Below, piece by piece: positions 17,001 through 58,925 of a stretch of 64,000 bases of DNA (position 1 is the first letter of the stretch; the number at the start of each line of letters is the position of its first letter). This DNA comes from Naegleria gruberi (taxonomy: Eukaryota). The translations under genes and the position numbers were made by a program. The DNA lies in NCBI GenBank assembly GCA_000004985.1, contig GG738888.1. One strand, given 5' to 3'. The notes beneath the pieces are model-generated. The model was not told the DNA's origin. It made no database searches and was given only the letters and a program-made list of their open reading frames with translations.

Positions 17001-17109
17001 CAAGAAGGTTCTTGCTGATTTGGAAGATGATTTGCAAAGTGGATTATTGAAGGAAGATGATGAAACTGTTGCTGCTGATTCATCTGCTCCAGTTGAAGCT
17101 GAAGAATAA
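11055..17109 (+). CDS. Myosin II heavy chain (conventional myosin: motor domain, IQ region, ~1100-aa coiled-coil tail); 2 exons (11055..11658, 11795..17109), 136-nt intron
   Basis: True ATG at 11055, since the track start at 10998 is GTG. Motor motifs are present: P-loop GESGAGKT, switch I NNNSSRFGKF, switch II LDIAGFE, and the SH helix region LRCNGVLEGIRI. A GTATGT donor at 11659 and tactacag acceptor at 11794 (phase 1) join the ORFs at 10998.. and 11866... A long heptad-repeat tail follows. Total 5919 nt = 1973 codons. Confidence 0.9.
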
Positions 17110-35815: not shown

Positions 35816-37171
35816 ATGTCTAGACGTAAAAAACTACAACAACAACCGGAACCAGCCACTCCAAGGAAGAATGGTTCTGCCTCTAATTCCGATGCCGCTT
35901 CATCTACTCAAGCTACTCCTACCAAGTCATCTGGTAGCAAGTCTCCAACCAAGTCTCCTGGCAAAACAGGTGCCAGCAAGTCTCCTAGCAAACCTGCTAG
36001 CATTCCGAAGACGAAGTCAAAAGCCGATACTCTCGTACATCACTCCTTCCCTTCCTACAAGCGTAGGTTTAGGGTCCTTCTGGCAGGTTTTCCTGAAGGG
36101 AGTAATCAACAGCAGGTGCTTGAGCACTTTAACATTGATTTAAATAGTGTTTATGGTGTTCAATTGACCTCGGATGTCAAAAGTGTGGCATTTGTCTACT
36201 TCATCAGCCATGAACTTGCTGTAAAGGCTGTTAGTGTCAATCGGGAGGATCTCAAATCTGCTACTATTTCTAAATTGTTATATGTTGGTGGTATTGTTGT
36301 AAATAATCTTTCCTTCAATCCCAGAAAAAACAAACCTTCTCTTATGACCAGAGTGAAAGAGCTTATCCAAGAAACTGCCACCAAAGGTACTGCTGTTGAC
36401 CTGAAGCACCTTGCCACCAATTCAAGTCTCGAAATGTTGGAGAAAAGAGTGAAAACTCTTGAATCCTGCGTGAAGAGCTTAGAGGAAGAGAACTCCGCTT
36501 TGAAATCTAATTTGGAGAAATTGGTGAACAAAGAAGATTTTAAAAATGATATGAATCAAGTTAATATCAAAACCACCAATGTTGGCAAGGATCTTTCTGA
36601 CTTCAAATCCTTTATGGATGGGGAATTGAAAAACAACGGCTCACGTATGAAACATCTTAATGACTCAATGACGGACATTAATGAAAATATTAACAAGCTT
36701 AAAGAATCCATCCAGTCTGCTGTAGAGAAAGTCAAGTCTGACTTTTCTAGTGAAATCAAATCCCTTCACAGTGATCTCTCCTTAAAGAAAAAAGATGTCG
36801 AAACTCTATTAAATAGTTTTAAAATGGATTTAAACAAACTCAAAAAGGACAGATCAGACTCCGAATTTTCAATCAGCTCTCAAATTCAGGCCCTTCAAAA
36901 GTCTATAGATGGAGTCAACTCTAACGAGGGAGGAATAAGTAAGTTCGTTTCCCAAACAGTAGATGACGACTTGGATTTGGATAGGAAAAACAGTTTATTC
37001 CAAACTCCAAGAAAGAAGTCTGTTTCTATTAGGAAAAAGAAAAAACTAGGCAGTCCTTTTAAGTCTGCTATTGTTCTTCGAAACGTGAATCTGAGAGTTT
37101 CCACTACTAAGGCAGCCGATTCCCCATGTATGGCTGTAGATAAAAGTGAACTCTCAGAGGAGGACAATTAA
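35816..37171 (+). CDS. LINE ORF1 protein (nucleic-acid-binding, RRM-like + coiled-coil)
   Basis: 451-aa ATG-initiated ORF directly upstream of the endonuclease/RT ORF. The region FRVLLAGFPEG...VAFVYFISHELAVKAV is RRM-like, followed by a heptad-repeat segment. Confidence 0.6.
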   Translation: MSRRKKLQQQPEPATPRKNGSASNSDAASSTQATPTKSSGSKSPTKSPGKTGASKSPSKPASIPKTKSKADTLVHHSFPSYKRRFRVLLAGFPEGSNQQQVLEHFNIDLNSVYGVQLTSDVKSVAFVYFISHELAVKAVSVNREDLKSATISKLLYVGGIVVNNLSFNPRKNKPSLMTRVKELIQETATKGTAVDLKHLATNSSLEMLEKRVKTLESCVKSLEEENSALKSNLEKLVNKEDFKNDMNQVNIKTTNVGKDLSDFKSFMDGELKNNGSRMKHLNDSMTDINENINKLKESIQSAVEKVKSDFSSEIKSLHSDLSLKKKDVETLLNSFKMDLNKLKKDRSDSEFSISSQIQALQKSIDGVNSNEGGISKFVSQTVDDDLDLDRKNSLFQTPRKKSVSIRKKKKLGSPFKSAIVLRNVNLRVSTTKAADSPCMAVDKSELSEEDN

Positions 37172-37185
37172 ACATCACCTTAGAA

Positions 37186-40100
37186 TGGCCAGTTGCAACC
37201 TCTCGTCCTTTTCAATCGACAAACAGGCCATTCTTCTTCACCACATCAAGAACGAGAGGCTTGATGTTATTAACATCCAAGAATCGCACTGGGACTCCAG
37301 CGTGTTCAAGGATAATGTTAGTAAGGCTGCTAAGTTCTTTTCCCCTTGCAAGATTTATGGAACTCCATGTAGTCCAAATGATAAGGCAGCCGGAATCCTC
37401 ACTATTATCAAAGGTACTCTGCATTGAAAGGTAATTTCTTTTGAAGTGCTAGTTTCAGGCAGAGTTTCATGTTTAAAATTAGAAACTGATTATGGTGTTG
37501 TCAACATCATTAATTGGTACGGTGTGCAAAAGTATAGTAGTGAATTCCAGAACATCTTAACTAAGCTCTCAGAGTATTTACTGGAAGCTATGTTTCACTC
37601 GGAACATGTTATTATAATGGGTGACCTTAATATCAACACCTTGTTTGGCTCGGAGAAGAGGAAAGCGAGCGCCTTCAATGAATGGTTACAAGTATTTAAC
37701 CTGAATGATCTTGTTCCATGTCCGACTCGCCCCTCTTTTAAGTCTAGTAGAGGTAGCAAGAAGCCATATTCTACCAGACCAGATCATATTGTTAGCTCCC
37801 TACTCTCCAGCCAACTGTGGGATGTTGAAATGTTTCTTCAACACAAAATGGTCTGTGCTGAGTTTCAATTATTCGATTTGGAGAGCACTGCTAAATTTGA
37901 GGAGGTTTTCTATATGTCTAAATTCAATAACAAAGCGTTTACTGAGAATCTAGACTGCATCAATTCAAAGATTGCTTCCTTTTCAGGAAAAGATCTTCAA
38001 TCCTTCTTAACTGAGCTGTGCTCTCAGTATCATTCGCCGATTAGGAAATCTCCTTTGATTACTGATATTAAAGAATATAGAGATTTAGAGCGTATTCGGA
38101 GGGCTCTCCAAAAGGCTAAATGGTCTAACCGACCGAATAAGATAGCCAAGGAATTTATGGCTACTGTTGGTGTAGATAATGCAACTGTAGCCTATAAAGA
38201 TGTGGTGAAGAAACAACAGAACGTTATCCTCAGTGCTCTTAAAGCTAGAAAAGAGGCCTTCAAAAAGGCAGTTAATAACCTTAAAAGTAGTGTTCCTTAT
38301 AGATACGCGTTTAAATCGGAGCGTAACTCTAGCTCTGTGTTTAAAATCTCTGATCCAACTCAAGTCACGGAACACTTTGAAAAGATGTTCAATACTGCAC
38401 TCGGAGACTCTAATTTGGATGAGAAATTAATCACAGGACACCCCAAACTTGCAGAATTTAGGGTCCCACCTGCTAACCCAGGTTTGCTTGCGAATGTGGT
38501 TAGCCGGATGAAACACTCAATGCCTGGTAGTGATAAGGTGCCAATGATTGTTTTCAAATCTATGAATGAAGATGCTCTCCTTACAGTGTGTTCAATCTTT
38601 AACAAAATCCTTGTTGATGGTAACCCCATCCCTGATTCTTGGAAAGCAGGTCTGCTACTTCCCTTACCTAAAAACTCGAATCCCAAATCACTCTCTGACT
38701 TCAGACCTATTGTTGTTCTCCCTATTATTTATAGAATTTTTTCTTCCTATGTTAACTACCACCTCATGAACAAGGTGGACGAGGAAAAAGTGATTCACTC
38801 AGCCCAAAGGCTTCAAACGCCTTGCCTCAACTACTGACCAGCTCGTGGTGGTCAAGTCTATCATTTCCGAATATAGAAAAACAAAGAAACCATTATTCAT
38901 GTGCACCCTCGATATTAAGAATGCATATGGAAGTGTGGTCCATAGCAAGTTGAAATCTATCCTTCCCAGGATAGGTTTTAATGAGTCAGTAACCAATCTT
39001 GTTATGAAAATGGTTACGGGGCACAGAATCAAAGTGCTTGCTAATGGCTCAACATCACCAGCTTTTGAAGCAAGGTTTGGAGTCCCACAAGGGGATCCTA
39101 TTAGCCCTCTTGTGTTCAATCAATACTTTAACACTGTTACTTCAGTGATTGATTCATATCAAGGAGCTTCCATTTGCGGAGAAAAAGTAGTTCTCCTTCT
39201 ATATGCAGACGATATCTTGGTTCTTTCTGAATCAGCTTCGGAATTAACCAATATACTTACTGTATTAAACTCAATAGCCCTACAGCTAGGGTTGCACTTC
39301 GCCACTCACAAGTGCAAAGTATTTGGTATCACTGCATCTGGCCTCAGATCTCGAGCAAAAGTTTACCTAAATGGTACTAACATTAATAGTTCTAAGAATA
39401 ATCCGTTAGAGTATCTGGGTGCCTCCTTTATTAATAACATGTCTTGGTCTCCCTCCGATGATAAGGTTCTCTTAAAAGTTGAATCCAGATTACTAAATTT
39501 CAGACCAAAACACTTGAGACTCGGTCCAATGAGGAACGTAATATTATCTAAGGTGCTTTCTGTACCTAGATACCTCTCAAGCGTAGATGCTATTCCACTT
39601 TCACTATTGGAAAAATTGGAAGTCAAAATTAGTGGAATTATTAAGAAAAGAATTGGATGTGACAACAGGCTCTCTAAAGCCGTTATATATGGTGATAAAT
39701 CCCAGGGTGGACTTGGGCTTTCATCTCCAGTTGATATTAGTCACGTGGAAAGGATGGCATCTGTCTGTAGGTTTGTCAATTCTACCTCTCCTATCACCCA
39801 AAAAATCGCAAGAGCCATGATAAATAAGGCGCTCAAGGGTGAAACTACAGATTCACTGTGGAAAAATACTGCCGCTACAATGAAAGATCTGAAATATTAC
39901 TTCAAATCCACAGATAATGGATGGGTCTTGTGTAACCGTACCAATCACAAGCCTGTCTCCAACCTTAGAAATGCTATCATTGAAACTCAGCGATCCAAGA
40001 AAATTATTAATAAGTTGGGCCAATTAGACAATGACTATAATTGGCATAATTGCACTCTCTCCTTCTGGAGAAACTCTCTCTTGTCTTATTATCAGCAAAG

Positions 40101-40557
40101 ACTCCTCTACTTTAATCTCCACCACTCAATTTTACTAGGTAACGACAGTATTTGTGACAAATGTAATGTCAAGGAAGATTGGACCCACGTATTCCAAACT
40201 TGTCCCAAATGCAATCCTGAAAAGGATGAACTGTATGCCACATGGGACGCTATCTCCCAGAAATTTAGCCTTAACAAGATTCGTTTCCCTCCTGATATCT
40301 CAGAATCCTCTCAACTTAGGATAGAATTTGATGGTCGTTGCTCCCGTAATGACTGGCTTAACTGGTCTAAGCGCAAAAGAATACCTAAGAATGTGGCCCT
40401 AGAAGTCTACAAAGCACTAGCTATTTATTTGGAAAATTGCTACAAGAACTCAGTGTGGTACAACCGTCCCAATGCAAGCTTCACTATTAACAGGAAATAC
40501 CTCTCTGCCTACCACAGGCAAGCTCAGTCTAACCAACCACTTAGCATCAACCCATAA
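37186..40557 (+). pseudogene. LINE ORF2 (AP-endonuclease + reverse transcriptase + Cys-rich C-terminal domain), disrupted by an in-frame TGA (37425-37427) and a 1-nt frameshift near 38800-38815
   Basis: ATG at 37186 (MASCNLSSFSIDKQ...). Track ORFs 37146.. and 37446.. share a frame and are separated by one stop only. ORF 38845.. is in the +1 frame, and the shift falls inside the RT finger/palm region (...HSAQ / KGFKRLASTTDQL...). This is either an inactive copy or assembly errors. Confidence 0.6.
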
Positions 40558-43110: not shown

Positions 43111-46100
43111 TNNNNNNNNNNNNNNNNNNNNNNNNNNNNNNNNNNNNNNNNNNNNNNNNNNNNNNNNNNNNNNNNNNNNNNNNNNNNNNNNNNNNNNNNN
43201 NNNNNNNNNNNNNNNNNNNNNNNNNNNNNNNNNNNNNNNNNNNNNNNNNNNNNNNNNNNNNNNNNNNNNNNNNNNNNNNNNNNNNNNNNNNNNNNNNNNN
43301 NNNNNNNNNNNNNNNNNNNNNNNNNNNNNNNNNNNNNNNNNNNNNNNNNNNNNNNNNNNNNNNNNNNNNNNNNNNNNNNNNNNNNNNNNNNNNNNNNNNN
43401 NNNNNNNNNNNNNNNNNNNNNNNNNNNNNNNNNNNNNNNNNNNNNNNNNNNNNNNNNNNNNNNNNNNNNNNNNNNNNNNNNNNNNNNNNNNNNNNNNNNN
43501 NNNNNNNNNNNNNNNNNNNNNNNNNNNNNNNNNNNNNNNNNNNNNNNNNNNNNNNNNNNNNNNNNNNNNNNNNNNNNNNNNNNNNNNNNNNNNNNNNNNN
43601 NNNNNNNNNNNNNNNNNNNNNNNNNNNNNNNNNNNNNNNNNNNNNNNNNNNNNNNNNNNNNNNNNNNNNNNNNNNNNNNNNNNNNNNNNNNNNNNNNNNN
43701 NNNNNNNNNNNNNNNNNNNNNNNNNNNNNNNNNNNNNNNNNNNNNNNNNNNNNNNNNNNNNNNNNNNNNNNNNNNNNNNNNNNNNNNNNNNNNNNNNNNN
43801 NNNNNNNNNNNNNNNNNNNNNNNNNNNNNNNNNNNNNNNNNNNNNNNNNNNNNNNNNNNNNNNNNNNNNNNNNNNNNNNNNNNNNNNNNNNNNNNNNNNN
43901 NNNNNNNNNNNNNNNNNNNNNNNNNNNNNNNNNNNNNNNNNNNNNNNNNNNNNNNNNNNNNNNNNNNNNNNNNNNNNNNNNNNNNNNNNNNNNNNNNNNN
44001 NNNNNNNNNNNNNNNNNNNNNNNNNNNNNNNNNNNNNNNNNNNNNNNNNNNNNNNNNNNNNNNNNNNNNNNNNNNNNNNNNNNNNNNNNNNNNNNNNNNN
44101 NNNNNNNNNNNNNNNNNNNNNNNNNNNNNNNNNNNNNNNNNNNNNNNNNNNNNNNNNNNNNNNNNNNNNNNNNNNNNNNNNNNNNNNNNNNNNNNNNNNN
44201 NNNNNNNNNNNNNNNNNNNNNNNNNNNNNNNNNNNNNNNNNNNNNNNNNNNNNNNNNNNNNNNNNNNNNNNNNNNNNNNNNNNNNNNNNNNNNNNNNNNN
44301 NNNNNNNNNNNNNNNNNNNNNNNNNNNNNNNNNNNNNNNNNNNNNNNNNNNNNNNNNNNNNNNNNNNNNNNNNNNNNNNNNNNNNNNNNNNNNNNNNNNN
44401 NNNNNNNNNNNNNNNNNNNNNNNNNNNNNNNNNNNNNNNNNNNNNNNNNNNNNNNNNNNNNNNNNNNNNNNNNNNNNNNNNNNNNNNNNNNNNNNNNNNN
44501 NNNNNNNNNNNNNNNNNNNNNNNNNNNNNNNNNNNNNNNNNNNNNNNNNNNNNNNNNNNNNNNNNNNNNNNNNNNNNNNNNNNNNNNNNNNNNNNNNNNN
44601 NNNNNNNNNNNNNNNNNNNNNNNNNNNNNNNNNNNNNNNNNNNNNNNNNNNNNNNNNNNNNNNNNNNNNNNNNNNNNNNNNNNNNNNNNNNNNNNNNNNN
44701 NNNNNNNNNNNNNNNNNNNNNNNNNNNNNNNNNNNNNNNNNNNNNNNNNNNNNNNNNNNNNNNNNNNNNNNNNNNNNNNNNNNNNNNNNNNNNNNNNNNN
44801 NNNNNNNNNNNNNNNNNNNNNNNNNNNNNNNNNNNNNNNNNNNNNNNNNNNNNNNNNNNNNNNNNNNNNNNNNNNNNNNNNNNNNNNNNNNNNNNNNNNN
44901 NNNNNNNNNNNNNNNNNNNNNNNNNNNNNNNNNNNNNNNNNNNNNNNNNNNNNNNNNNNNNNNNNNNNNNNNNNNNNNNNNNNNNNNNNNNNNNNNNNNN
45001 NNNNNNNNNNNNNNNNNNNNNNNNNNNNNNNNNNNNNNNNNNNNNNNNNNNNNNNNNNNNNNNNNNNNNNNNNNNNNNNNNNNNNNNNNNNNNNNNNNNN
45101 NNNNNNNNNNNNNNNNNNNNNNNNNNNNNNNNNNNNNNNNNNNNNNNNNNNNNNNNNNNNNNNNNNNNNNNNNNNNNNNNNNNNNNNNNNNNNNNNNNNN
45201 NNNNNNNNNNNNNNNNNNNNNNNNNNNNNNNNNNNNNNNNNNNNNNNNNNNNNNNNNNNNNNNNNNNNNNNNNNNNNNNNNNNNNNNNNNNNNNNNNNNN
45301 NNNNNNNNNNNNNNNNNNNNNNNNNNNNNNNNNNNNNNNNNNNNNNNNNNNNNNNNNNNNNNNNNNNNNNNNNNNNNNNNNNNNNNNNNNNNNNNNNNNN
45401 NNNNNNNNNNNNNNNNNNNNNNNNNNNNNNNNNNNNNNNNNNNNNNNNNNNNNNNNNNNNNNNNNNNNNNNNNNNNNNNNNNNNNNNNNNNNNNNNNNNN
45501 NNNNNNNNNNNNNNNNNNNNNNNNNNNNNNNNNNNNNNNNNNNNNNNNNNNNNNNNNNNNNNNNNNNNNNNNNNNNNNNNNNNNNNNNNNNNNNNNNNNN
45601 NNNNNNNNNNNNNNNNNNNNNNNNNNNNNNNNNNNNNNNNNNNNNNNNNNNNNNNNNNNNNNNNNNNNNNNNNNNNNNNNNNNNNNNNNNNNNNNNNNNN
45701 NNNNNNNNNNNNNNNNNNNNNNNNNNNNNNNNNNNNNNNNNNNNNNNNNNNNNNNNNNNNNNNNNNNNNNNNNNNNNNNNNNNNNNNNNNNNNNNNNNNN
45801 NNNNNNNNNNNNNNNNNNNNNNNNNNNNNNNNNNNNNNNNNNNNNNNNNNNNNNNNNNNNNNNNNNNNNNNNNNNNNNNNNNNNNNNNNNNNNNNNNNNN
45901 NNNNNNNNNNNNNNNNNNNNNNNNNNNNNNNNNNNNNNNNNNNNNNNNNNNNNNNNNNNNNNNNNNNNNNNNNNNNNNNNNNNNNNNNNNNNNNNNNNNN
46001 NNNNNNNNNNNNNNNNNNNNNNNNNNNNNNNNNNNNNNNNNNNNNNNNNNNNNNNNNNNNNNNNNNNNNNNNNNNNNNNNNNNNNNNNNNNNNNNNNNNN

Positions 46101-46634
46101 NNNNNNNNNNNNNNNNNNNNNNNNNNNNNNNNNNNNNNNNNNNNNNNNNNNNNNNNNNNNNNNNNNNNNNNNNNNNNNNNNNNNNNNNNNNNNNNNNNNN
46201 NNNNNNNNNNNNNNNNNNNNNNNNNNNNNNNNNNNNNNNNNNNNNNNNNNNNNNNNNNNNNNNNNNNNNNNNNNNNNNNNNNNNNNNNNNNNNNNNNNNN
46301 NNNNNNNNNNNNNNNNNNNNNNNNNNNNNNNNNNNNNNNNNNNNNNNNNNNNNNNNNNNNNNNNNNNNNNNNNNNNNNNNNNNNNNNNNNNNNNNNNNNN
46401 NNNNNNNNNNNNNNNNNNNNNNNNNNNNNNNNNNNNNNNNNNNNNNNNNNNNNNNNNNNNNNNNNNNNNNNNNNNNNNNNNNNNNNNNNNNNNNNNNNNN
46501 NNNNNNNNNNNNNNNNNNNNNNNNNNNNNNNNNNNNNNNNNNNNNNNNNNNNNNNNNNNNNNNNNNNNNNNNNNNNNNNNNNNNNNNNNNNNNNNNNNNN
46601 NNNNNNNNNNNNNNNNNNNNNNNNNNNNNNNNNN
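43111..46634. other. Assembly gap (3524 N)
   Basis: Run of N. By homology with the downstream copy, it hides the 5' ~5 kb of gene copy A. Confidence 1.
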
Positions 46635-49600
46635 AAAAGACTACATGTCTTGGTCATGGAGCATGTGATTCCACAGGCACTTGTGTGTGTTATGCAGATA
46701 GAGAACAGGGATATTGGAATGGTCCTAATTGTGATTCTTGTTTGAAAGGGTATTTTGGAAGTGAATGTTCAACCTATTTCTCTTCAGTCAATTCTTCATC
46801 AACATCAAATATTATTGGTCAAATATCAAAATATTTTGATGGAATATTGTTCAAGTTGTTTGGACCTTCATCTTATTCAATGAATTCATTAATGTGTTCT
46901 TTATTGATTCATTCCCACGATCTGGCCTTACTAGGTTCTGAACCAAAATGTTATTGGACTGACAAGGAGACTGGAAATTTCAAAATTGAATTTGATAATG
47001 ACTTCATTTTTGATATTTCTCAAACAAAAAGTATTAGATTGAACACTAACGTATTTTCAAAATCCAAGGTAGCTGATTTTATTGGATTGTCATTAATTTT
47101 GTCAGAGGAAATGCAGCAACCAATTTCTGTTATCCAAACTACAAAGAAACTCTATTCAACTTCTGAAAATGTTCATATCAGTGGTGCAAATAGTTTTTCA
47201 GGAGACAAGAAAGGATTAGAATATTATTGGGATGTTAGTGGAAATATTACTAGTAATTTATTTCAGTCCATCAGACTGATTCGAGATCCAATACTTAAAA
47301 TTGATAAGGGAAAATTAACTAGTGGTTTTTATACCATAAATTTGATTGTAAAAAGCCAAGTAAGCAAATTAGTAAGCTCCCAGTCCTCAGAAAATATTGA
47401 AATACAAAATGTTGAATTTCCCTCAGTTGTTATTTCAGGAAAAAAGGAATTGGTTATGCTCTCAACTGAAAAGTCAGTTATTATTAAAAAGACAACAAGT
47501 CTTCCTACTTCATTGAAAGATAAGGAAATGAAGGTTGAGTGGCAACTTGTTGCAGGACCGACAATCAAATTTGAGAAGGATTCGTACAATAATTTACTGA
47601 TCCCACAATTTTCAACTGGAAAACGTGTCTATAGCTTCAAAGTTTCAATTTATTCTGTTGAAAATCCTTCATTAACCTCAAGTGATACTGTAATAATTAA
47701 TACTGAACAACCATCCCTCACACTTTCACTTATACTAACAAAGAACTCAAATGCTTCTCAATCTTGTCTACAAATTAATTTTCAAGATCCTGAGAATAAT
47801 ACAGATGAAATAGAAGTTTGGAGTTGGACCTGTATTGATTCAGAAACATTTGGTTATTGTGGAGATTTCATAGTTGAGAAAATGTATCAATACGCAAAAG
47901 ACCGTTCTAGTATTGTTGTGGTGGCAAAAGAGGATTTCTCAAATCAATTAATTAATCCAACATTCACACTTACAATTACAAAAGGAAAAAGATTTGTTTC
48001 CAGTTCCATCACTTTGAAAATTTCTCATCCGCCTCCAATTGTTAATGTTATTGATATTTCACCTAAATTGAAAACAAAAATTAATGACAATGACAAGATA
48101 TCCATAGAGATTAAACATCCTGACCAAGATCCAGCAGATTCAACTCTGTCAGTGAAAACTCAATGGAAAATTGATGGCACAATTGTTTCTGAATGTGAAA
48201 CCTCAAAAGTTTCTAATGAAATTCAAACAATATCCTCCACAATTTCTTCTCCATATAGTAACATCAAGATTGTTAACAAGAATCAACAAAGTTCTATTAT
48301 TGTTGACTCAAAAGAATTAGAGTATGGAATGAAACATTCAATTCAACTCAAAGTTTCGTTTGTAAATAAGAACCATGATGAAATTGCAGCCTCAGAAGTG
48401 TTCAACAATTTTGTAAAATCCCAACCCCCAAAGAAGTGTCCTTGTAAAATCTCTCCTTCTACTGGTATTTCAATGAAGACTGACTTTTCATTCAGTTGTG
48501 ATAATTGTCAAAACGAAGACAACACAATTGAAATCAAACAAGGATACATTGATAGGGAAACTGGAATTAAAGTTTCTGTTCCACTGTCACAAGATTCCAC
48601 AATGAAAATACCTTCCATTCCATCCTCTTTGAATGATGAAACTGTTACTTTATTCATTGAATTGATTGACACCAATACAGGTGAATCAAGACTTATGAAG
48701 TCTATCGTTACCGTTAGACCAGATACTGTTTCAAGTTTATCTGAAATAATGGAGCAAGTCTCGAATCAAACAAACCTTATTTCCGCCTTTGTAAAGGATG
48801 GTGATACAAGTAGGAGCGTTTCTCAAACAATCAACACTGTTATTTCAACCACTCAACTGCTCCAAAGTTTGCCATCAACTTCTAAGGATTCATCAATTAT
48901 CAGCTCAATTCAATCCAAGTTACTAGATACCTTGGCTAGTTCAGTTCAAACTGCTGGTAAGGATTCTGCTCCAGAATCATCAGCAATCACAATTTTAGCT
49001 GTGAATGCAATGATTAAAAGTGAGAATAGAATGGAAACTCCAGTCATCAGAAAATCAATTACAGTTCTTAACAATGTTATACAATTGACAATTAAGAGTA
49101 AGGTAGATATATTCTCTCAATCATTCAAACCACTGATGAATACTATTGGTACTCTTAGCACACAAGTTTCAAAGATGAAATTGTTGAGAGATCAATTCGA
49201 ACACTACGAGTCCATAGCAATAATTGCTAAAGATTATGTTCTTTCTTTCGTTCAGGTCCAATCAGTGTCTGTTGATCCAGCTGCTCTACAACAAGAGGTT
49301 GCTAATGTAAAGGCAGACAAGGTTTATTTAACAGATTTTTCTTCATCTATTGTGACCTCTCCTCCAACCAAAGAAAGAGTTATTTCTTATCAAGCTTATG
49401 TCAAAATACCATCGATTGAGTTTACTGAAATTAATGAGTATGCAGAGTTGACATATTGTATTGTGATGAAAGATCATGTTCCCACAATTTTCACACAAAT
49501 AATTGAACAAGATTTGAATATCTCATCCTTAATAGTAGTATCACCACAGAGTGTCAGCTTTTCACTTTCTTCCCCTAAATTGCTAACCGCTGATTTACCT

Positions 49601-50095
49601 AACAAGATTGCTGTTAATGTTCACATCAACGACGAGGAATTCATCTCAAGTGAGGACTCATTATATTCTTGTATTATTATTCAACCAGATTTAGAGTATG
49701 ATACAAGTATGTGTACAGTCTTTGGGCGTGATAGTGCTACCAATTCAATAACTTGCAATTGTAACTTTGAATCATGGAAAATAGAAAATCTCATTGTTGT
49801 TAAGGATTTGAAAAAATCTCGTTCACCACCCAAATCCTCGAAACTTCAGAATAATAGTAGTATCATTATTATTATTCTTTCTGTTGTTATCCCTAGTGGA
49901 TCATTGATTATTATATTATCTGGTGTTGTTGCATTGTTATGTTGTGTTTATTGTGTTAAGAAAAGAAAACCAAAGATTAATCCATACAATGAAAGCAATG
50001 GCTTGCATTCGCATAATATCAAACAGCCCTCCAAAATTATGGATAGCTCTTTAATATCTATCCACCAATCAGACTCGTCAATGTCATTACTCTAA
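46635..50095 (+). CDS. Copy A of duplicated large type-I membrane protein gene, 3' portion only (1152 codons; 5' exons and EGF region lie in the gap)
   Basis: From the gap edge in frame to TAA at 50093-50095. About 99.4% nucleotide identity to 54868-58320, with roughly 20 substitutions giving about 11 amino-acid changes. The same C-terminal TM helix (IIIIILSVVIPSGSLIIILSGVVALLCCVYCV) and 45-aa tail are present. Confidence 0.8.
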
Positions 50096-51009
50096 TCTAA
50101 TATATTTTCGTGTTTTTAAAAACACATAACAATAAAAAAATATAAATTAAGACAAATGGATTAAAGCTCAATTGAGATACCGTTTGGTGAATCAACCTTG
50201 GAACCTTTGGATTGTAACCGAACCTCGGATACATCTTACTCCAATCTCTTATTGATTAAAGATTTTGAAATATGTACTTTTAGAAGTGGGTTTGGAAATA
50301 CATACTCTTTGATTATTCAATGAAAAACTACTTAACCATTCATTATGATATCTTACAAACTTGTTCTATACATTTAGGAGGAGCTACCCTGAAAGGATGA
50401 CATCTTTAAATCAAATATTCATCGAACAATAAGGCACAGGTTTGAAAGACAAATATTGAAAGTTAGAAAAGCGAGTAAAAATGAAAATTTTATAATTTAA
50501 AATCGGGGAACAGACCAAATGATGGATAAAGAACGTTGTTCCTCCTTGATCGACTAAGTAATTATCAAGAAGGAAGGTTTCTAAATATTTGCAAAATTTC
50601 ATCTTCAATGATAATTTTCAAACCGAAAAATTTAAAAATAGAATAGATAATTGTGAGACGGAAAAGTAACATACAAAAAAAATGTGATGTCTCTTTCTCT
50701 TCCTCATTCAATCATCTCATCATATCATCATATCATCAGGAGTTGTTTCATAATAATTTTAAAAATATATATTGATTGGAATTATTTGGAAGATGATGTT
50801 TCGGAATTGGAATAATATTTATTTGGAAGTTATTATAAAGGTGGAGGTGTGGTGCCTTTGGCACTCACTTCCACCAAGTTGCAAAATTAATTGGAAATTT
50901 AGGATAGCTTTAATAATGTAATTGGATTGGATTGGTAGATGTATCACCTCTTGGTCATCAAGTTGGATCTTCCCTTCCATCATTTGGAAGGGAGCAACTT
51001 CTCCCTTCA

Positions 51010-51269: not shown

Positions 51270-51700
51270 TTTTTTGAAGATATTGAGCCATGAATTTGAA
51301 ACTTTCTCAGATTGTTCTCCTCATCTAGGGGAGTATATCCATACTTGATACTTGTATGATATATTGTAAAATGAATGAGATGGAGTATATTCTATATGTT
51401 GAAATATGACAATTTGACAGATTGTTATTATTATCATATTGAATTCAATTCTAAAACACTAAAATTGATACCAGATGTATATTAGTGTGACTAAATGTAT
51501 CTGGTAAAGTTACAGGATGATTGGATGTACTTTCATTGAGATAGAGTGTTCACTAAGATATATTAAGTGTTGACATTGAACATTTACTGATTAATTTTAT
51601 GAAAGTAGTTTGAAATGTTTCTAAACTATTATAGATTTATTTAATTGATGTATAGACTATGTGGTATCAATTATAGACTGATTGTACGTATAATGAGTGA
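51270..51700. repeat. ~430-bp dispersed repeat, copy 1 (downstream of gene copy A)
   Basis: About 85% identity to 59855-60300. Shared blocks include gaaactttc.cagattgttctcctcatc.aggggagt, gacaatttgacagattgttattattatcata.tgaattcaattctaa, ggtaaagttaca.gatga.tggatgtactttc..tgagatagag. Confidence 0.7.
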
Positions 51701-51835
51701 GTTGGATTATAAGTTTTATTCTTTTAAGAATAACTTGTCTAATATTACTTCTGGTAAAGGTAATCCAATTATTGATTTAATGTTGTCTACTGTTGTTTCT
51801 ACTCATTCAAATACTATTTCCCATAGTTCTTCTTC

Positions 51836-51910: not shown

Positions 51911-51960
51911 NNNNNNNNNNNNNNNNNNNNNNNNNNNNNNNNNNNNNNNNNNNNNNNNNN
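51911..51960. other. Assembly gap (50 N)
   Basis: Run of N. The ~30 nt after it (atcaagatcatcgatatctggtgtgtacat) nearly duplicates the ~30 nt before gap 1 (43082-43110). Confidence 1.
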
Positions 51961-52218: not shown

Positions 52219-55200
52219 ATGGCAAATCCACTCTCAGATCAACACATGCTTTTGCGTCATTGCTTGTTGTTGTGTTTGATAGGAAGTTTGATGATTATCA
52301 GTGGCAATTGTTTGGCAATTCAACCATACTCACCTAAATCAAAAATTATTGCTGGAATATTACCTGCTGGTAATATATCAAGTTCCGACACCAATATATT
52401 TCCAGATTCCTCTCTGTTTATGGATGGTGAGGCTGGAATTTTGTATTTCTATGAGAGTTATCGAATAAGGAAAATAACTCTAGCTACAGGAATTATTTCA
52501 ACAGTGGTATGTAATTCTTCTTGCTTAATTAGAAATTATACAACAATCATCTCAGGTTGGTTCAGGAAAAGAAGGAAGTATTCATACAAACAATCCCTTA
52601 ACATCTCAAATTGGATTAGTACGGAACTTACAACGATGGAAAGATAGTTTAATTTGGAGTGAAAATTGTTTTATTAACAAATTAGATTTAAAATCAAATC
52701 AAATAACAAGGGTATTTGGTAATGGATGGGGAACTGACTCTGATGCCACAATTACTGACCCTTTAAAGGTAGTAATCTCAGATGATATCACCTCTGTGGA
52801 AATAGACAAAAGCACGGGAGATATTTATATTGGAGGTATGTATACTGGACAATTAATCAAAGAATTTTATTTCTTTTAGAAATTACATGTATAAGAAAAA
52901 TTGACGCTAAAACAGGTAGAGTAAGCATTTATGCTGGTAACTGCAGAGTTTCAAGTAGTTTTTTTGATGTTGCATTGTCTAACTCATTATTCGAACAGAT
53001 TCATTCGTTACAATTTTGTAATGGAGAATTGTACTTAGTAAGTTCTTAATGTTATAAAGCATAACATTTTCTTCAAGACTACAAAGAATAGGTTGCAGAA
53101 AATATTCAATAATAACGGTCAAATGTGGTTAACCACTTTAAAATTTGGATCTTCTATGAACTGGTTAGAATGTTTTAATGGTTCCTTAATTGTTGATTTT
53201 AAATTCAACGGATTATCTGGAAAACCTAATATTGCATATGCAGCAGTTGATGAAACTAAGGGTGATATTTATTTTGCGGACAATAAGCTCTGTAACATAC
53301 AAAAGTTGTCTGGGGGAAATTTTTCCACAACTATTGATTGCAAGAAAGAAGTGGATATCCAAACTCTTCCACTCTCAATTTATGCCGCTGATTCATCTTT
53401 CGATGACACTGGTTTGTATATAGCTGATAGAAGGAGTATCAAATTCCTTAATTATTCAACAAATGCTCTCAGTTTTGTTGGTGGTTATCCAGAAGCTTCC
53501 ACCGATATTTGCTTCTCAAACATTAGGTCTATTCATAGTACTGATAAGGGAATATTTATAGGTATGTTTTCAAGTTTCAAGTTACTGACCCATGTCTAGT
53601 GGATGATAATATGATCAAGTTACTGTCTGGTCCGAACCTTACTTATATTCTAGGTTCTTCTAATTATAATATTGTTTGTGTTAATGGTTCATTAGCAACA
53701 AGCTGTCATTTCAATGTGAGTATGGTTAAATTAAGGCAGTATTAACACTTGTTTTTAAAACAAAGTCTTACGGTCCTATTAAGCTTGAATTATTCGAAGA
53801 TGAACTTTACTTTTTATTGCCAAGTTGGTATACTCAAAGATTGGGTAAAATTACACTGAATGGTTTAATTTTTTTCTTTGATATTCCACAACCGACTGTT
53901 GACACCTTCAGTATGAATGATGGTAAAATTTATTACAGCTACGGTGGTAGTCTTTATGTGTATGACTTGTATACTGGAAGTTTAACATTATCAATTTCTG
54001 TAAGTGAGATTATCAATATTAATATTCACCTTTAAAAAGAATTTTAATCAAGAAATTTTTTACATTGAGAATGAACAAATGTTTTATTTTGATTATGAAA
54101 ATGAAGGAAGTTATGCAATCAAGGAATATTCATTGGACACAAAAATAACTAGATATTGGGACAATAACTTTAATTTCGAGAAAGATACTTTACTTTTTAG
54201 CTATGTTTCTACTTTGGATTTCTATGTGATAGTAGAGTTTAATCAAGTAAGAAAAATAGTTAAGGAAATGAATTCTTGTTATGGAATTCTGTCATCTGAT
54301 CCAAGTGTTTGTAATGGAAGAGGCCGTTGTGTTGAAACTGACACATGTCAATGTTTCTCTGACTCTAAAGTTAAAATATCAGGATTGTCTTGTGAGCAAT
54401 TGCTTTGCAAAAGCATTTATAATGGTGTAGAGTACTTTTTAGACAGTAATGACCCAAGAGTATGTTCTAAAAACGGAAAATGTACTTTTAACTCAACCAA
54501 TCCAGAAGGTTGCTCTTGTAAATCTGGATACTTTGGAGAAAGTTGTGAGAAATTTGGCTGTTTTTCAATACCAAAGAATGATGCAAATGTTTGCTCAGGG
54601 AAAGGAAAGTGTGTAGACATGGATACGTGTCAGTGTTTAGATGATTCAAATGGTCATTATTATGGCCCAAGTTGTAGTTCCTGCCATCCAGGTTATTCTG
54701 GAATTCATTGCACTGAAAAAGCTTGTTCTGCTTCCACTTGTGTGAATGGTGTATGTGGAGGTGATAACCAATGTACTTGTTCTGGTAATTTTACAGGAAT
54801 TATTTGTGATAATTGTATAATTGATCATTATGGATCTGATTGTAAAGTCTTATGTAATGAAAAGTCTACATGTCTTGGTCATGGAGCATGTGATTCCACA
54901 GGCACTTGTGTGTGTTATGCAGATAGAGAACAGGGATATTGGAATGGTCCTAATTGTGATTCTTGTTTGAAAGGGTATTTTGGAAGTGAATGTTCAACCT
55001 ATTTCTCTTCATTCAATTCTTCATCAACATCAAATATTATTGGTCAAATATCAAAATATTTTGATGGAATATTGTTCAAGTTGTTTGGACCTTCATCTTA
55101 TTCAATGAATTCAGTAATGTGTTCTTTATTGATTCATTCCCACGATCTGGCCTTACTAGGTTCTGAACCAAAATGTTATTGGACTGACAAGGAGACTGGA

Positions 55201-58200
55201 AATTTCAAAATTGAATTTGATAATGACTTCATTTTTGATATTTCTCAAACAAAAAGTATTAGATTGAACACTAACGTATTTTCAAAATCCAAGGAAGCTG
55301 ATTTTATTGGATTGTCATTAATTTTGTCAGAGGAAATGCAGCTACCAATTTCTGTTATCCAAACTACAAAGAAACTCTATTCAACTTCTGAAAATGTTCA
55401 TATCAGTGGTGCAAATAGTTTTTCAGGAGACAAGAAAGGATTAGAATATTATTGGGATGTTAGTGGAAATATTAGTAGTAATTTATTGCAGTCCATCAGA
55501 CTGATTCGAGATCCAATACTTAAAATTGATAAGGGAAAATTAACTAGTGGTTTTTATACCATAAATTTGATTGTAAAAAGCCAAGTAAGCAAATTAGTTA
55601 GCTCCCAGTCCTCAGAAAATATTGAAATACAAAATGTTGAATTTCCCTCAGTTGTTATTTCAGGAAAAAAGGAATTGGTTATGCTCTCAACTGAAAAGTC
55701 AGTTATTATTAAAAAGACAACAAGTCTTCCTTCTTTATTGAAAGATAAGGAAATGAAGGTTGAGTGGCAACTTGTTGCAGGACCGACAATCAAATTTGAG
55801 AAGGATTCGTACAATAATTTACTGATCCCACAATTTTCAACTGGAAAACGTGTCTATAGCTTCAAAGTTTCAATTTATTCTGTTGAAAATCCTTCATTAA
55901 CCTCAAGTGATACTGTAATAATTAATACTGAACAACCATCCCTCACACTTTCACTTATACTAACAAAGAACTCAAATGCTTCTCAATCTTGTCTACAAAT
56001 TAATTTTCAAGATCCTGAGAATAATACAGATGAAATAGAAGTTTGGAGTTGGACCTGTATTGATTCAGAAACATTTGGTTATTGTGGAGATTTCATAGTT
56101 GAGAAAATGTATCAATACGCAAAAGACCGTTCTAGTATTGTTGTGGTGGCAAAAGAGGATTTCTCAAATCAATTAATTAATCCAACATTCACACTTACAA
56201 TTACAAAAGGAAAAAGATTTGTTTCCAGTTCCATCACTTTGAAAATTTCTCATCCGCCTCCAATTGTTAATGTTATTGATATTTCACCTAAATTGAAAAC
56301 AAAAATTAATGACAATGACAAGATATCCATAGAGATTAAACATCCTGACCAAGATCCAGCAGATTCAACTCTGTCAGTGAAAACTCAATGGAAAATTGAT
56401 GGCACAATTGTTTCTGAATGTGAAACCTCAAAAGTTTCTAATGAAATTCAAACAATATCCTCCACAATTTCTTCTCCATATAGCAACATCAAGATTGTTA
56501 ACAAGAATCAACAAAGTTCTATCATTGTTGACTCAAAAGAATTAGAGTATGGAATGAAACATTCAATTCAACTCAAAGTTTCGTTTGTAAATAAGAACCA
56601 TGATGAAATTGCAGCCTCAGAAGTGTTCAACAATTTTGTAAAATCCCAACCCCCAAAGAAGTGTCCTTGTAAAATCTCTCCTTCTACTGGTATTTCAATG
56701 AAGACTGACTTTTCATTCAGTTGTGATAATTGTCAAAACGAAGACAACACAATTGAAATCAAACAAGGATACATTGATAGGGAAACTGGAATTAAAGTTT
56801 CTGTTCCACTGTCACAAGATTCCACAATGAAAATACCTTCCATTCCATCCTCTTTGAATGATGAAACTGTTACTTTATTCATTGAATTGATTGACACCAA
56901 TACAGGTGAATCAAGACTTATGAAGTCTATCGTTACCGTTAGACCAGATACTGTTTCAAGTTTATCTGAAATAATGGAGCAAGTCTCGAATCAAACAAAC
57001 CTTATTTCCGCCTTTGTAAAGGATGGTGATACAAGTAGGAGCGTTTCTCAAACAATCAACACTGTTATTTCAACCACTCAACTGCTCCAAAGTCTGCCAT
57101 CAACTTCTAAGGATTCATCAATTATCAGCTCAATTCAATCCAAGTTACTAGATACCTTGGCTAGTTCAGTTCAAACTGCTGGTAAGGATTCTGCTCCAGA
57201 ATCATCAGCAATCACAATTTTAGCTGTGAATGCAATGATTAAAAGTGAGAATATAATGGAAACTCCAGTCATTAGAAAATCAATTACAGTTCTTAACAAT
57301 GTTATACAATTGACAATTAAGAGTAAGGTAGATATATTCTCTCAGTCATTCAAACCACTGATGAATACTATTGGTACTCTTAGCACACAAGTTTCAAAGA
57401 TGAAATTGTTGAGAGATCAATTCGAACACTACGAGTCCATAGCAATAATTGCTAAAGATTATGTTCTTTCCTTCGTTCAAGTCCAATCAGTGTCTGTTGA
57501 TCCAGCTGCTCTGCAACAAGAGGTTGCTAATGTAAAGGCAGACAAGGTTTATTTAACAGATTTTTCTTCATCTATTGTGACCTCTCCTCCAACCAAAGAA
57601 AGAGTTATTTCTTATCAAGCTTATGTCAAAATACCATCGATTGAGTTTACTGAAATTAATGAGTATGCAGAGTTGACATATTGTATTGTGATGAAAGATC
57701 ATGTTCCCACAATTTTCACACAAATAATTGAACAAGATTTGAATATCTCATCCTTAATAGTAGTATCACCACAGAGTGTCAGCTTTTCACTTTCTTCCCC
57801 TAAATTGCTAACCGCTGATTTACCTAACAAGATTGCTGTTAATGTTCACATCAACGACGAGGAATTCATCTCAAGTGAGGACTCATTATATTCTTGTATT
57901 ATTATTCAACCAGATTTAGAGTATGATACAAGTATGTGTACAGTCTTTGGGCGTGATAGTGCTACCAATTCAATAACTTGCAATTGTAACTTTGAATCAT
58001 GGAAAATAGAAAATCTCATTGTTATTAAGGATTTGAAAAAATCTCGTTCACCACCCAAATCCTCGAAACTTCAGAATAATAGTAGTATCATTATTATTAT
58101 TCTTTCTGTTGTTATCCCTAGTGGATCATTGATTATTATATTATCTGGTGTTGTTGCATTGTTATGTTGTGTTTATTGTGTTAAGAAAAGAAAACCAAAG

Positions 58201-58320
58201 ATTAATCCATACAATGAAAGCAATGGCTTGCATTCGCATAATATCAAACAGCCCTCCAAAATTATGGATAGCTCTTTAATATCTATCCACCAATCAGACT
58301 CGTCAATGTCATTACTCTAA
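52219..58320 (+). CDS. Copy B of duplicated large secreted/type-I membrane protein: signal peptide, ~450-aa NHL/beta-propeller-like repeat region, ~7 tenascin-type EGF repeats, ~1050-aa extracellular region, single TM, 45-aa cytoplasmic tail; 7 exons
   Basis: Hand-built exon model: 52219..52506, 52556..52835, 52880..53037, 53078..53561, 53600..53715, 53766..53999, 54040..58320. All introns are GT..AG (gtatgt, gtatgt, gtaagt, gtatgt, gtgagt, gtaagt donors), 38-50 nt, with consistent phases. Total 5841 nt = 1947 codons. Exon 1 encodes MANPLSDQHMLLRHCLLLCLIGSLMIISGNCLA (signal peptide). Repeats such as TGDIYIGG, GDIYFADNKLCNIQKLSGG, TGLYIADRRSIKFLNY and DGKIYYSYGGSLYVYDLYTG are propeller-blade-like. 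EGF units follow the CxCxxGxxGxxC pattern. It joins track ORFs 52219, 53093, 53817 and 54004. Confidence 0.8.
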
Positions 58321-58473
58321 TCTAATATATTTTAAGAATAAAAAAATATAAATTAAGACAAATGGATTAAAGCTCAATTGAGATACCGTTTGGTGAATCA
58401 ACCTTGGAACCTTTGGATTGTAACCGAACCTCGGATACATCTTACTCCAATCTCTTATTGATTAAAGATTTTG

Positions 58474-58925
58474 AAATATGGACTTTTAGAAGTCAAATGT
58501 TTGGGACGTGAATCTACTCATTAGATCGAATAGGTATTGCTAATAAAGGAACATTTCATTGATTTATTGATTATAACGGTCAAATTGAGTTCCATCCAAG
58601 TGAATCACATGGTTGGGTTTGGTTAGGATTCAGAGTTGATTTATTTGGGTTATTTAAGAGATTACTTAGTGAAGATTCATATCATTGATTATATTTCTTA
58701 TCATCTATTAATGATGTAAATTTGATGGTTTCATTTCTTATATTGATAGATATTTAAAGGTCAGGTCAGTATCAACTTTTGAAATATGGACTTTGAGAAT
58801 TCAAATGTTTGGGACGTGAATCTACTCATTAGATTGAAAGGGTATTGCTAATAAAGGAACATTTCATTGATTTATTGATCATAACGGTCAAATTGAGTTG
58901 AATGGAAGTGAATCACATGTTGATT
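58474..58925. repeat. Two ~150-bp homologous segments (58474-58625, 58779-58925) forming a local tandem-like repeat downstream of gene copy B
   Basis: Both share ttttgaaatatggactttt/gagaagt/attcaaatgtttgggacgtgaatctactcattagat.gaa.gggtattgctaataaaggaacatttcattgatttattgat.ataacggtcaaattgagtt. Confidence 0.7.

Follow-up and report, generated by a model that had tools for sequence, protein, structure and literature searches.

A REJ/GAIN superfamily gene with tiny 5′ introns near a candidate chromosome end of Naegleria gruberi

Within a 64,000-nucleotide stretch of Naegleria gruberi DNA (GenBank assembly GCA_000004985.1, contig GG738888.1), referred to here as the window, we analysed a gene on the + strand, gene B, which starts with an ATG at 52219 and ends with a stop codon at 58318-58320. 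When six introns are removed it reads as one open reading frame (ORF) of 1946 amino acids (aa). The product is very likely a type I membrane glycoprotein that consists of a signal peptide, ~10 NHL-like repeats, six EGF-like modules, a segment of ~250 aa, an REJ domain, a GAIN-like domain, a single transmembrane (TM) segment and a 45-aa tail, an architecture that belongs to the REJ/GAIN superfamily. As judged by sequence, gene B is a protist member of this superfamily, which includes polycystin-1 and the sea-urchin REJ proteins, and falls in a branch that is much expanded in the Heterolobosea. The gene had already been catalogued as NAEGRDRAFT_71165 (EFC41042.1, XP_002673786.1, D2VQ49), a "predicted protein" of 1843 aa in the Joint Genome Institute (JGI) model, and is mis-annotated there; it is an uncharacterised and not surprising addition to a known superfamily.

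Domain architecture of the gene B product

A Pfam scan of gene B identified an REJ domain (PF02010) with E=2.4e-20 and a score of 73 bits against a cut-off of 25. The match covers profile positions 13-446 of 452, and REJ was present in 8 of 9 aligned family members. A preliminary description of this DNA had left ~1000 aa between the EGF-like modules and the TM segment with no recognisable motif, and had considered that the protein might represent a lineage-specific adhesion or receptor family. Most of this region can in fact be assigned, and the family has known relatives: the REJ domain (aa 1091-1521) is followed by ~340 aa modelled as GAIN-like, and the two together place gene B in the polycystin-1/REJ/GAIN superfamily. 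What remains of the unassigned ectodomain is aa ~841-1090, where the Pfam scan gave no match. In the homologues P0215, P0236 and P0237 a K319L-like PKD domain lies directly before REJ, and by analogy aa 841-1090 probably have an Ig-like or PKD-like fold. When the C-terminal 1150 aa were compared with PDB chains by sequence there was no match at E≤1, and a word-indexed homologue search with the C-terminal 567 aa returned nothing.

The region aa ~1495-1860 was modelled twice with AlphaFold2, using alignments of 9 and 21 sequences. In both models a seven-helix bundle (predicted local distance difference test score, pLDDT, 70-89) was followed by a linker of low prediction quality, then a beta region and finally a TM helix, and the last strands of the beta region bore a cysteine motif (pLDDT about 73-80). 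In Foldseek searches against the PDB the top match of the first model was BAI3 (4DLO, E=7.4e-5), which was also the only match at E≤1e-3. The second model matched BAI3 (4DLO_A/B) and BAI2 (8OEK) with E=2.7e-5 to 5.4e-5 over 332-344 columns. The GAIN domain has been defined as six helices and a beta sandwich that ends in the GPS motif next to the membrane (PMC3321182). A fold of this kind, ~320 aa long, in which a helical subdomain (A) and a beta sandwich (subdomain B) lie just before the first TM segment, is present in the models, and aa ~1495-1860 are, on this structural evidence, a probable GAIN-like domain.

The candidate GPS motif of gene B contains four cysteines, C1806, C1820, C1834 and C1836, in a C...C...CxC pattern. 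These align with the Pfam-positive GPS motifs of P0272, in which Pfam REJ is followed by Pfam GPS (E=2.7e-10, CQCTHLTDFAVF), and of P0215 and P0223, which read CSCSHLTAF and CDCTHLTSF. It counts against the assignment that Pfam GPS and GAIN were not called on gene B itself, GPS not even at E≤1. The conserved GPS Trp residues are missing from gene B, which reads CNCNFESWKIENLIVI, without His-Leu/Thr (the slash marks the cleavage site). The autoproteolysis triad, His-Leu/Thr with Ser or Cys as alternatives to Thr, was not found, the sequence being CNC-NFES-WKIENLIVI where the canonical motif is CxC-xHL/T-xFAVL. Since the cleavage triad is absent, a non-cleaving GAIN domain is predicted. Several paralogues retain L-T at the GPS site (KQLT, SKLT, VRLT), but gene B and P0191 do not. 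BAI2 8OEK was deposited in an uncleaved state, and the BAI3 GAIN structure is also uncleaved (PMC3321182).

The N-terminal half begins with a signal-peptide-like segment (aa 1-33, 52219-52317), with aa 9-35 hydrophobic on hydropathy analysis. The NHL-like repeats come next and the EGF-like modules after them, the order that the preliminary description had given. The repeat region produced phmmer matches to bacterial NHL and TEN_NHL proteins down to E=1.7e-37, and almost all matches in a word-indexed homologue search with the whole protein were bacterial NHL proteins, gene B itself not being among them. The ~10 repeats carry a common motif, G-x-[IL]-[YF]...[IL]-x-K-[IL]...G, and from this sequence pattern they probably form a beta-propeller. 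The EGF array matched that of an NHL+EGF protein from Acrasis kona (BLASTP E=1e-25). Checked against the Pfam hidden Markov models, the architecture stood only in part. REJ was above threshold, but EGF_2 (E=3e-4) and EGF_Teneurin (E=2e-3) both lay just below the curated cut-offs, and NHL was not reported on gene B, though homologues carry PF01436 and PF25021; these EGF and NHL results weigh against the reading of the N-terminal half.

Hydropathy also bears out a type I membrane protein with a single TM segment and a 45-aa tail. The polypeptide has no channel and no 7TM or 11TM part. In the mechanism we propose, the distal propeller and EGF modules would serve to bind ligands or surfaces outside the cell (prey, substrate, matrix or other cells, for instance). 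Uncleaved, the REJ-GAIN stalk would tether them to the membrane, and a signal might be passed on by the short tail or by lateral partners. The ligand, localisation and signalling of the protein are pure inference, which tells against this part of the account.

Gene model and position of the introns

The unspliced sequence of gene B contains an ORF of 288 nucleotides (nt) that opens with the ATG at 52219, several short ORFs whose frames shift, and one of 4.3 kb that runs to 58320. Splicing solutions were enumerated with GT[AG][AT]G[TA] donors and AG acceptors 30-90 nt downstream, and an open frame was required from 52219 to 58320. The seven exons with consistent phases that had been reconstructed earlier were reproduced, and their translation is a single 1946-aa ORF interrupted by GT-AG introns. 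The introns are 49, 44, 40, 38, 50 and 40 nt long and lie in phases 0, 1, 0, 1, 0 and 0, with a GC content of 0.23-0.37. Their donors are, in order, GTATGT, GTATGT, GTAAGT, GTATGT, GTGAGT and GTAAGT, and the acceptor is AG in six of six. As none of the six lengths is divisible by 3, each intron must be spliced out to hold the frame. In total 36 in-frame acceptor combinations are open, and the seven-exon model takes the shortest intron at each donor. Since the 35 other combinations are also open, the frame alone is insufficient to fix the acceptors.

When the blades of the repeat region were aligned on their aromatic anchor, the junctions of introns 1-4 kept the residue spacing of uninterrupted blades. 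For example, YFYESYRIRKITLATGIISTV/VG in blade b1 aligns with YIG/EITCIRKIDAKTGRVSIYAG in b3 (slashes in these and the following sequences mark exon junctions). The preserved blade register therefore supports these exact splice sites. The junction of intron 1, ISTV/VGSG, matches the NHL consensus TGxISTVAGxG, and in codon usage 52556-52710 scores higher in the claimed frame (-4.8) than in the other two (-28.2 and -24.0). At intron 3 the alternative acceptors 53086 and 53098 would lose the blade register. Exon 7 aligns without a break to paralogues and to Pfam REJ. Three points limit the model: consensus and frame are the only grounds for the acceptors chosen at introns 5 and 6, the start codon may be M1 or M10, and the splice junctions are predicted from genomic sequence. 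A ciliate or other non-standard genetic code was rejected, as standard stop codons behave normally. Elsewhere in the window, a myosin II heavy-chain gene (11334-17109, +), whose product is as much as 49% identical to the myosin II motor of Dictyostelium, has an intron that was placed by homology; it is 137 nt long (~11659-11795), has the donor GTATGT and serves as a local reference for Naegleria splice signals.

The introns of gene B are as tiny (38-50 nt) and as confined to the 5′ end as the preliminary description had stated: all six fall in the first 26.7% of the coding sequence, for which uniform placement gives p ~3.6e-4. In N. gruberi the GC content is 33%, genes average 1.7 exons and annotated introns have a mean length of 203 bp (PMC8296547), so that six introns are many for this genome. 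In the N. lovaniensis homologue C9374_005657 (P0206), four introns (~49, 52, 49 and 102 nt; GTAAGT or GTATGT donors) are confined to the first 2.3 kb of the 7.9 kb that the gene spans, and a 5.5-kb intron-free exon follows. Since P0206 has the same pattern, tiny introns and 5′ clustering are normal for the gene family.

Reverse-transcriptase-mediated loss of 3′ introns is the textbook inference for 5′-biased introns. On the sequence evidence, a module-specific history may be an alternative cause of the clustering: the introns would have spread with the NHL module, and the EGF-REJ-GAIN-TM cassette would never have been intron-rich. All six introns of gene B lie inside the NHL-repeat region, and the first intron-free exon starts before the end of that region. 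Introns 2 and 4 occupy the same blade position in the same phase (GDIYIG/E and KGIFI/V, phase 1), and intron 3 is one residue off this position. In P0206 (L002 2001-9866, PYSW02000025.1) four of four introns are in NHL repeats; three lie at ...G/DGG of successive repeats and the fourth, at GDLIFV/D, is at the position of introns 2 and 4 of gene B. Because introns recur at equivalent blade positions in the two genes, they may have spread together with the blades. However, 5′ intron bias is general in intron-poor genomes and is attributed to recombination with reverse-transcribed copies of mRNA. Module history and reverse-transcriptase-mediated loss are not mutually exclusive, and we regard the former as a reasonable possibility without favouring it.

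Tandem copy, strain contig and public annotation

Comparison of sequences within the window indicates that gene B is the distal copy of a tandem pair, of which copy A is proximal. Nucleotides 46635-50287 and 54860-58493 are 98.9% identical over 3653 nt, and the proteins are 99% identical. The 5′ half of copy A, including its introns, is covered by a gap of 3523 N (43112-46634). The similarity ends ~170 nt past the stop codon, and ~1 kb of unrelated sequence is then followed by a 433-nt block at 83% identity. This block is a direct repeat (51274-51706 and 59857-60289), which may be an older duplication layer or a dispersed repeat.

A metagenome contig, L001 (ENA ERZ929261, k127_25426, 5299 nt), is 98.8% identical to 53061-58331, and its only coding indel relative to gene B is a missing codon at aa 1870. 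Its occurrence in the metagenome sample implies that an N. gruberi-like strain was present there. The ratio of non-synonymous to synonymous substitution rates (dN/dS) between copies A and B is 0.30, with a synonymous rate (dS) of 0.012; against L001 the ratio is 0.23-0.31, with dS 0.026-0.033. The ORF is intact in the visible part of copy A, in copy B and in L001. On these sequence comparisons copies A and B are under purifying selection, and a pseudogene was rejected (three intact copies, dN/dS ~0.3). Less divergence separates copy A from copy B than separates either from the other strain, which fits recent duplication or gene conversion.

The last part of the window, 63568-64000, is a near-perfect (TTTGGG)n array of ~70 units, two of them variant, which extends to the window end with its G-rich strand running 5′ to 3′ outward. 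TTTGGG is a candidate telomere repeat of N. gruberi (PMC3622300). As the window ends in this candidate repeat, we read it as a chromosome end, with genes A and B subtelomeric and gene B a few kb from the telomere. The tandem copy, the subtelomeric position and the public-database entry of gene B had all been missed in the preliminary description.

The pair might instead be an assembly artefact, in which two alleles or a collapsed repeat were set side by side around gaps. The scaffold is a Sanger-era draft, the copies are flanked by N gaps (43112-46634, 51911-51960 and 60786-62906), and they differ by only 1.1%. However, the unrelated ~1 kb and the 83%-identity block beyond it are unlike alleles, and both ORFs are intact, with a dN/dS of 0.30. 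Subtelomeres commonly carry such duplicates. We consider an artefact unlikely and treat A and B as a tandem pair.

Mapping of the JGI protein onto the window showed that introns 2, 3 and 6 are identical in the two gene models, which disagree at two sites. At site 1 the JGI model has a single 268-nt intron (52443-52710) with a GTATTT donor, so that exon 1 stops at 52442 and aa 76-148 are dropped. Within the dropped segment, RIRKITLATGIISTV/VGSGKEG spans the junction of the 49-nt intron and can be aligned there with the NHL-repeat consensus of bacterial homologues. With aa 76-148 restored, the match to bacterial NHL-repeat proteins improved in 35 of 35 cases, by 25.5 bits on average, a comparison that is somewhat biased because the 35 homologues had been retrieved with the seven-exon model as query. 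At site 2 the JGI model has a single 178-nt intron (53562-53739) and reads VLTLVFKTK, where the seven-exon model has a 38-nt intron, exon 5 and a 50-nt intron. The codon-usage score of exon 5 is +4.8 in the claimed frame and -36.8 and -28.0 in the others, compared with 7.7±6.7 for in-frame coding windows and -25.3±13.8 for intergenic windows, only 1% of which score as high. The sequence GIFI/VDDNMIKLL in exon 5 suits the blade motif and returns the blade spacing to ~50 aa. A 1-nt insertion at 53723 in L001 falls inside intron 5 and marks this stretch as non-coding.

If the JGI model (1843 aa, five introns including those of 268 and 178 nt) were the true transcript, the extra coding segments would be intronic. 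It is the deposited annotation, and the mean intron in the JGI annotation of N. gruberi measures 203 bp (PMC8296547). Two results at site 2 also speak for it and against the seven-exon model: homology scoring gave exon 5 no preference over the JGI version, and by our own reading of the differences all three exon 5 substitutions relative to L001 are non-synonymous. By the same reading, however, both L001 substitutions (53746, 53752) in the 24 nt that are coding only in the JGI model are non-synonymous as well. The segment skipped at site 1 carries the NHL homology and clean motif described above, and the JGI donor there departs from the GTAAGT/GTATGT consensus of all other introns seen here. 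At site 2 the codon usage of exon 5 resembles that of coding sequence in no frame but the right one. The JGI joins cut one blade spacing to ~22 aa and swap a conserved acidic position. We regard the JGI model as improbable; on the sequence evidence the seven-exon model is to be preferred to any other available, and the public model is in error at both sites. NAEGRDRAFT_71165 is then short by 103 residues, or ~two NHL-like blades: two sets of tiny introns, together with the intervening coding sequence, were annotated as longer introns. Programs that predict genes in Naegleria should therefore permit introns of 38-50 nt.

It is scarcely credible that the upstream exons are a separate gene and that the real product is the last ORF alone (1438 codons; for example the 1412-aa protein from MFYFDY that a prokaryote-style gene call on L001, P0189, starts inside exon 7), since exon 7 begins inside the repeat region and such a product would start mid-repeat without its own signal peptide despite an EGF/REJ/GAIN ectodomain and a C-terminal TM segment, since six frame-restoring GT-AG introns join the last ORF seamlessly to the signal-peptide exon, and since NHL and EGF occur in one protein in Acrasis P0035 and, together with REJ, in the single N. 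lovaniensis gene P0206. Gene B is thus retained as one gene, as first described.

Table 1. Features of gene B and of its tandem copy in the window
Feature	Coordinates	Strand	Residues and remarks
Exon 1	52219..52506	+	aa 1-96; start codon, signal-peptide-like segment, first NHL-like blade
Intron 1	52507..52555	+	49 nt, phase 0, GTATGT...CAG
Exon 2	52556..52835	+	aa 97-189
Intron 2	52836..52879	+	44 nt, phase 1, GTATGT...TAG; same in JGI model; blade register maintained
Exon 3	52880..53037	+	aa 190-242
Intron 3	53038..53077	+	40 nt, phase 0, GTAAGT...AAG; same in JGI model
Exon 4	53078..53561	+	aa 243-403
Intron 4	53562..53599	+	38 nt, phase 1, GTATGT...TAG; ACTGAC branch-like site
Exon 5	53600..53715	+	aa 404-442; 116 nt; missing from public model
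Intron 5	53716..53765	+	50 nt, phase 0, GTGAGT...AAG
Exon 6	53766..53999	+	aa 443-520
Intron 6	54000..54039	+	40 nt, phase 0, GTAAGT...AAG; same in JGI model
Exon 7	54040..58320	+	aa 521-1946 and stop; 4281 nt, intron-free
NHL-like repeat region	52396..54249	+	aa ~60-590; ~10 blade-like repeats; span includes six introns
EGF-like array	54265..54999	+	aa 596-840; 36 Cys, ~six 6-Cys modules, teneurin/tenascin type
Segment between EGF array and Pfam REJ start	55000..55749	+	aa 841-1090
REJ domain	55750..57042	+	aa 1091-1521; Pfam PF02010
Probable GAIN-like domain	56962..58032	+	helical subdomain aa ~1495-1666; beta subdomain aa ~1733-1851
GPS-like motif	57895-58029	+	aa 1806-1850, CIIIQPDLEYDTSMCTVFGRDSATNSITCNCNFESWKIENLIVIKD
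TM segment	58084..58182	+	aa 1869-1901; Kyte-Doolittle window maximum 2.94; helix in both AlphaFold2 models
Cytoplasmic tail and stop	58183..58320	+	45 aa, Ser/Lys-rich, KKRKPK...SMSLL
Tandem copy A, visible 3′ part	46635..50095	+	NAEGRDRAFT_71164 (EFC41041.1, 1071 aa); 5′ part in N gap 43112-46634

Further ORFs on the + strand lie upstream of the pair. The ORF at 31938-35726 (1262 aa) has EGF_Teneurin, EGF_2 and fn3 matches and weak similarity to the EGF array of gene B. It adds a second EGF-rich protein of surface type to this subtelomeric stretch of 64 kb. The ORFs at 35816-37171, 37446-38837 and 38845-40557 are situated just upstream of copy A and the gap. The last of these matches the Pfam reverse transcriptase RVT_1 (E=2.7e-23), and by sequence the three are probably a retroelement.

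Relatives and comparison with known systems

When the last 1150 residues of gene B were used in an exhaustive HMMER search, 135 relatives were found, the top ones being N. gruberi proteins. The REJ-containing C-terminal half is present in at least 16 named N. gruberi proteins, and also in N. lovaniensis, Willaertia magna, a picozoan and metagenomic eukaryotes. Most relatives are single-pass proteins with a short tail; a few are multi-TM. NAEGRDRAFT_48552 (P0190) is a direct homologue, with 49% identity to gene B over 780 aa. EGF_Teneurin arrays, REJ and a single C-terminal TM segment are common to gene B and its heterolobosean paralogues (P0190, P0206 and Willaertia magna ABK040_000315). P0206 further resembles gene B in its NHL repeats, on which TEN_NHL is weakly annotated, and in its tiny 5′ introns. 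The N-terminal modules of the heterolobosean EGF-REJ paralogues vary, and all of these proteins are uncharacterised "predicted proteins".

We suggest, very tentatively, that these proteins could form a single-pass NHL/EGF-REJ-GAIN family, partly subtelomeric, which diversifies by tandem duplication or gene conversion and in which a non-autoproteolytic GAIN domain serves as a rigid or mechanosensitive stalk. If this is true, the REJ-GAIN cassette would be a free-standing, single-pass surface-recognition module (for prey, substrate or mating type) far from the animals, and would have existed before, or independently of, its fusion to the 11-TM bodies of polycystins and the 7-TM bodies of adhesion G-protein-coupled receptors (GPCRs). 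With most of the formerly "unknown" ectodomain of gene B now assigned to REJ and a probable GAIN domain, the ectodomain cassette of polycystins and adhesion GPCRs occurs in the Heterolobosea as a single-pass receptor family, and the near-identical subtelomeric tandem copy hints at the mode by which the family has expanded. A full-text literature search for "Naegleria" together with "REJ domain" or "GAIN domain" found no paper. REJ and GAIN are already known as ancient, and 5′-biased short introns are expected in intron-poor protists. The practical value of these results is modest and current understanding is not overturned; they merit a database correction and a note on the REJ-GAIN expansion in the Heterolobosea. 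The GAIN domain itself has been described as ancient, "from Tetrahymena to mammals" (PMC3321182).

The likeness of gene B to teneurins lies in its best EGF matches, which are EGF_Teneurin and EGF_TEN, and in the TEN_NHL annotation of the bacterial homologues of its repeat region. In teneurins, which are type II proteins, the EGF repeats precede the NHL propeller, and there is a YD shell as well as a toxin-like C-terminus; tenascins consist of heptad repeats, EGF, FN3 and a fibrinogen globe. Unlike the teneurins, gene B is type I, with an N-terminal signal peptide, a C-terminal TM segment and the NHL-like repeats before the EGF-like modules, and the earlier view that this is not a teneurin or tenascin arrangement is upheld. 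Both were rejected on topology and domain order, and on the lack of any YD/Rhs, fn3 or fibrinogen match in the Pfam scan.

Among natural proteins the best fold matches to aa 1490-1905 are the GAIN domains of adhesion GPCRs (BAI3 4DLO, BAI2 8OEK, GPR110 8HC0 and ADGRG6 6V55). As in gene B, these consist of a helical subdomain and a beta sandwich with the GPS cysteine pattern right before the first TM segment. The identity, however, is only 8-10%, and gene B has one TM segment rather than seven and no HormR domain. An adhesion GPCR was rejected because of the single TM segment and because the Pfam scan gave no 7tm_2 match.

In polycystin-1, PKDREJ and the PKD1L proteins, as in gene B, REJ is followed directly by a juxtamembrane GAIN/GPS region, and all PKD proteins have a GAIN domain (PMC3321182). 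Polycystin-1 proper was rejected, as gene B has a single hydrophobic segment after the ectodomain and a 45-aa tail, without an 11-TM part; PLAT, PKD_channel and Pfam PKD repeats were not found on gene B in the Pfam scan.

The closest described architecture is that of sea-urchin suREJ1, which like gene B has a large modular ectodomain with EGF before REJ. A GPS region, one TM segment at the C-terminal end and a short tail are further features of suREJ1, which make it a single-pass REJ protein like gene B. The 1996 description of suREJ1 gives EGF, two C-type lectin modules and an REJ module of ~700 residues (PMC2120838); no lectin family was matched on gene B at E≤1 in the Pfam scan. Thus the two proteins differ in the modules that precede REJ and in their setting: suREJ1 has one EGF and two lectin modules and belongs to an animal gamete, whereas gene B has ~10 NHL-like repeats and ~six EGF-like modules and belongs to a heterolobosean amoeboflagellate.

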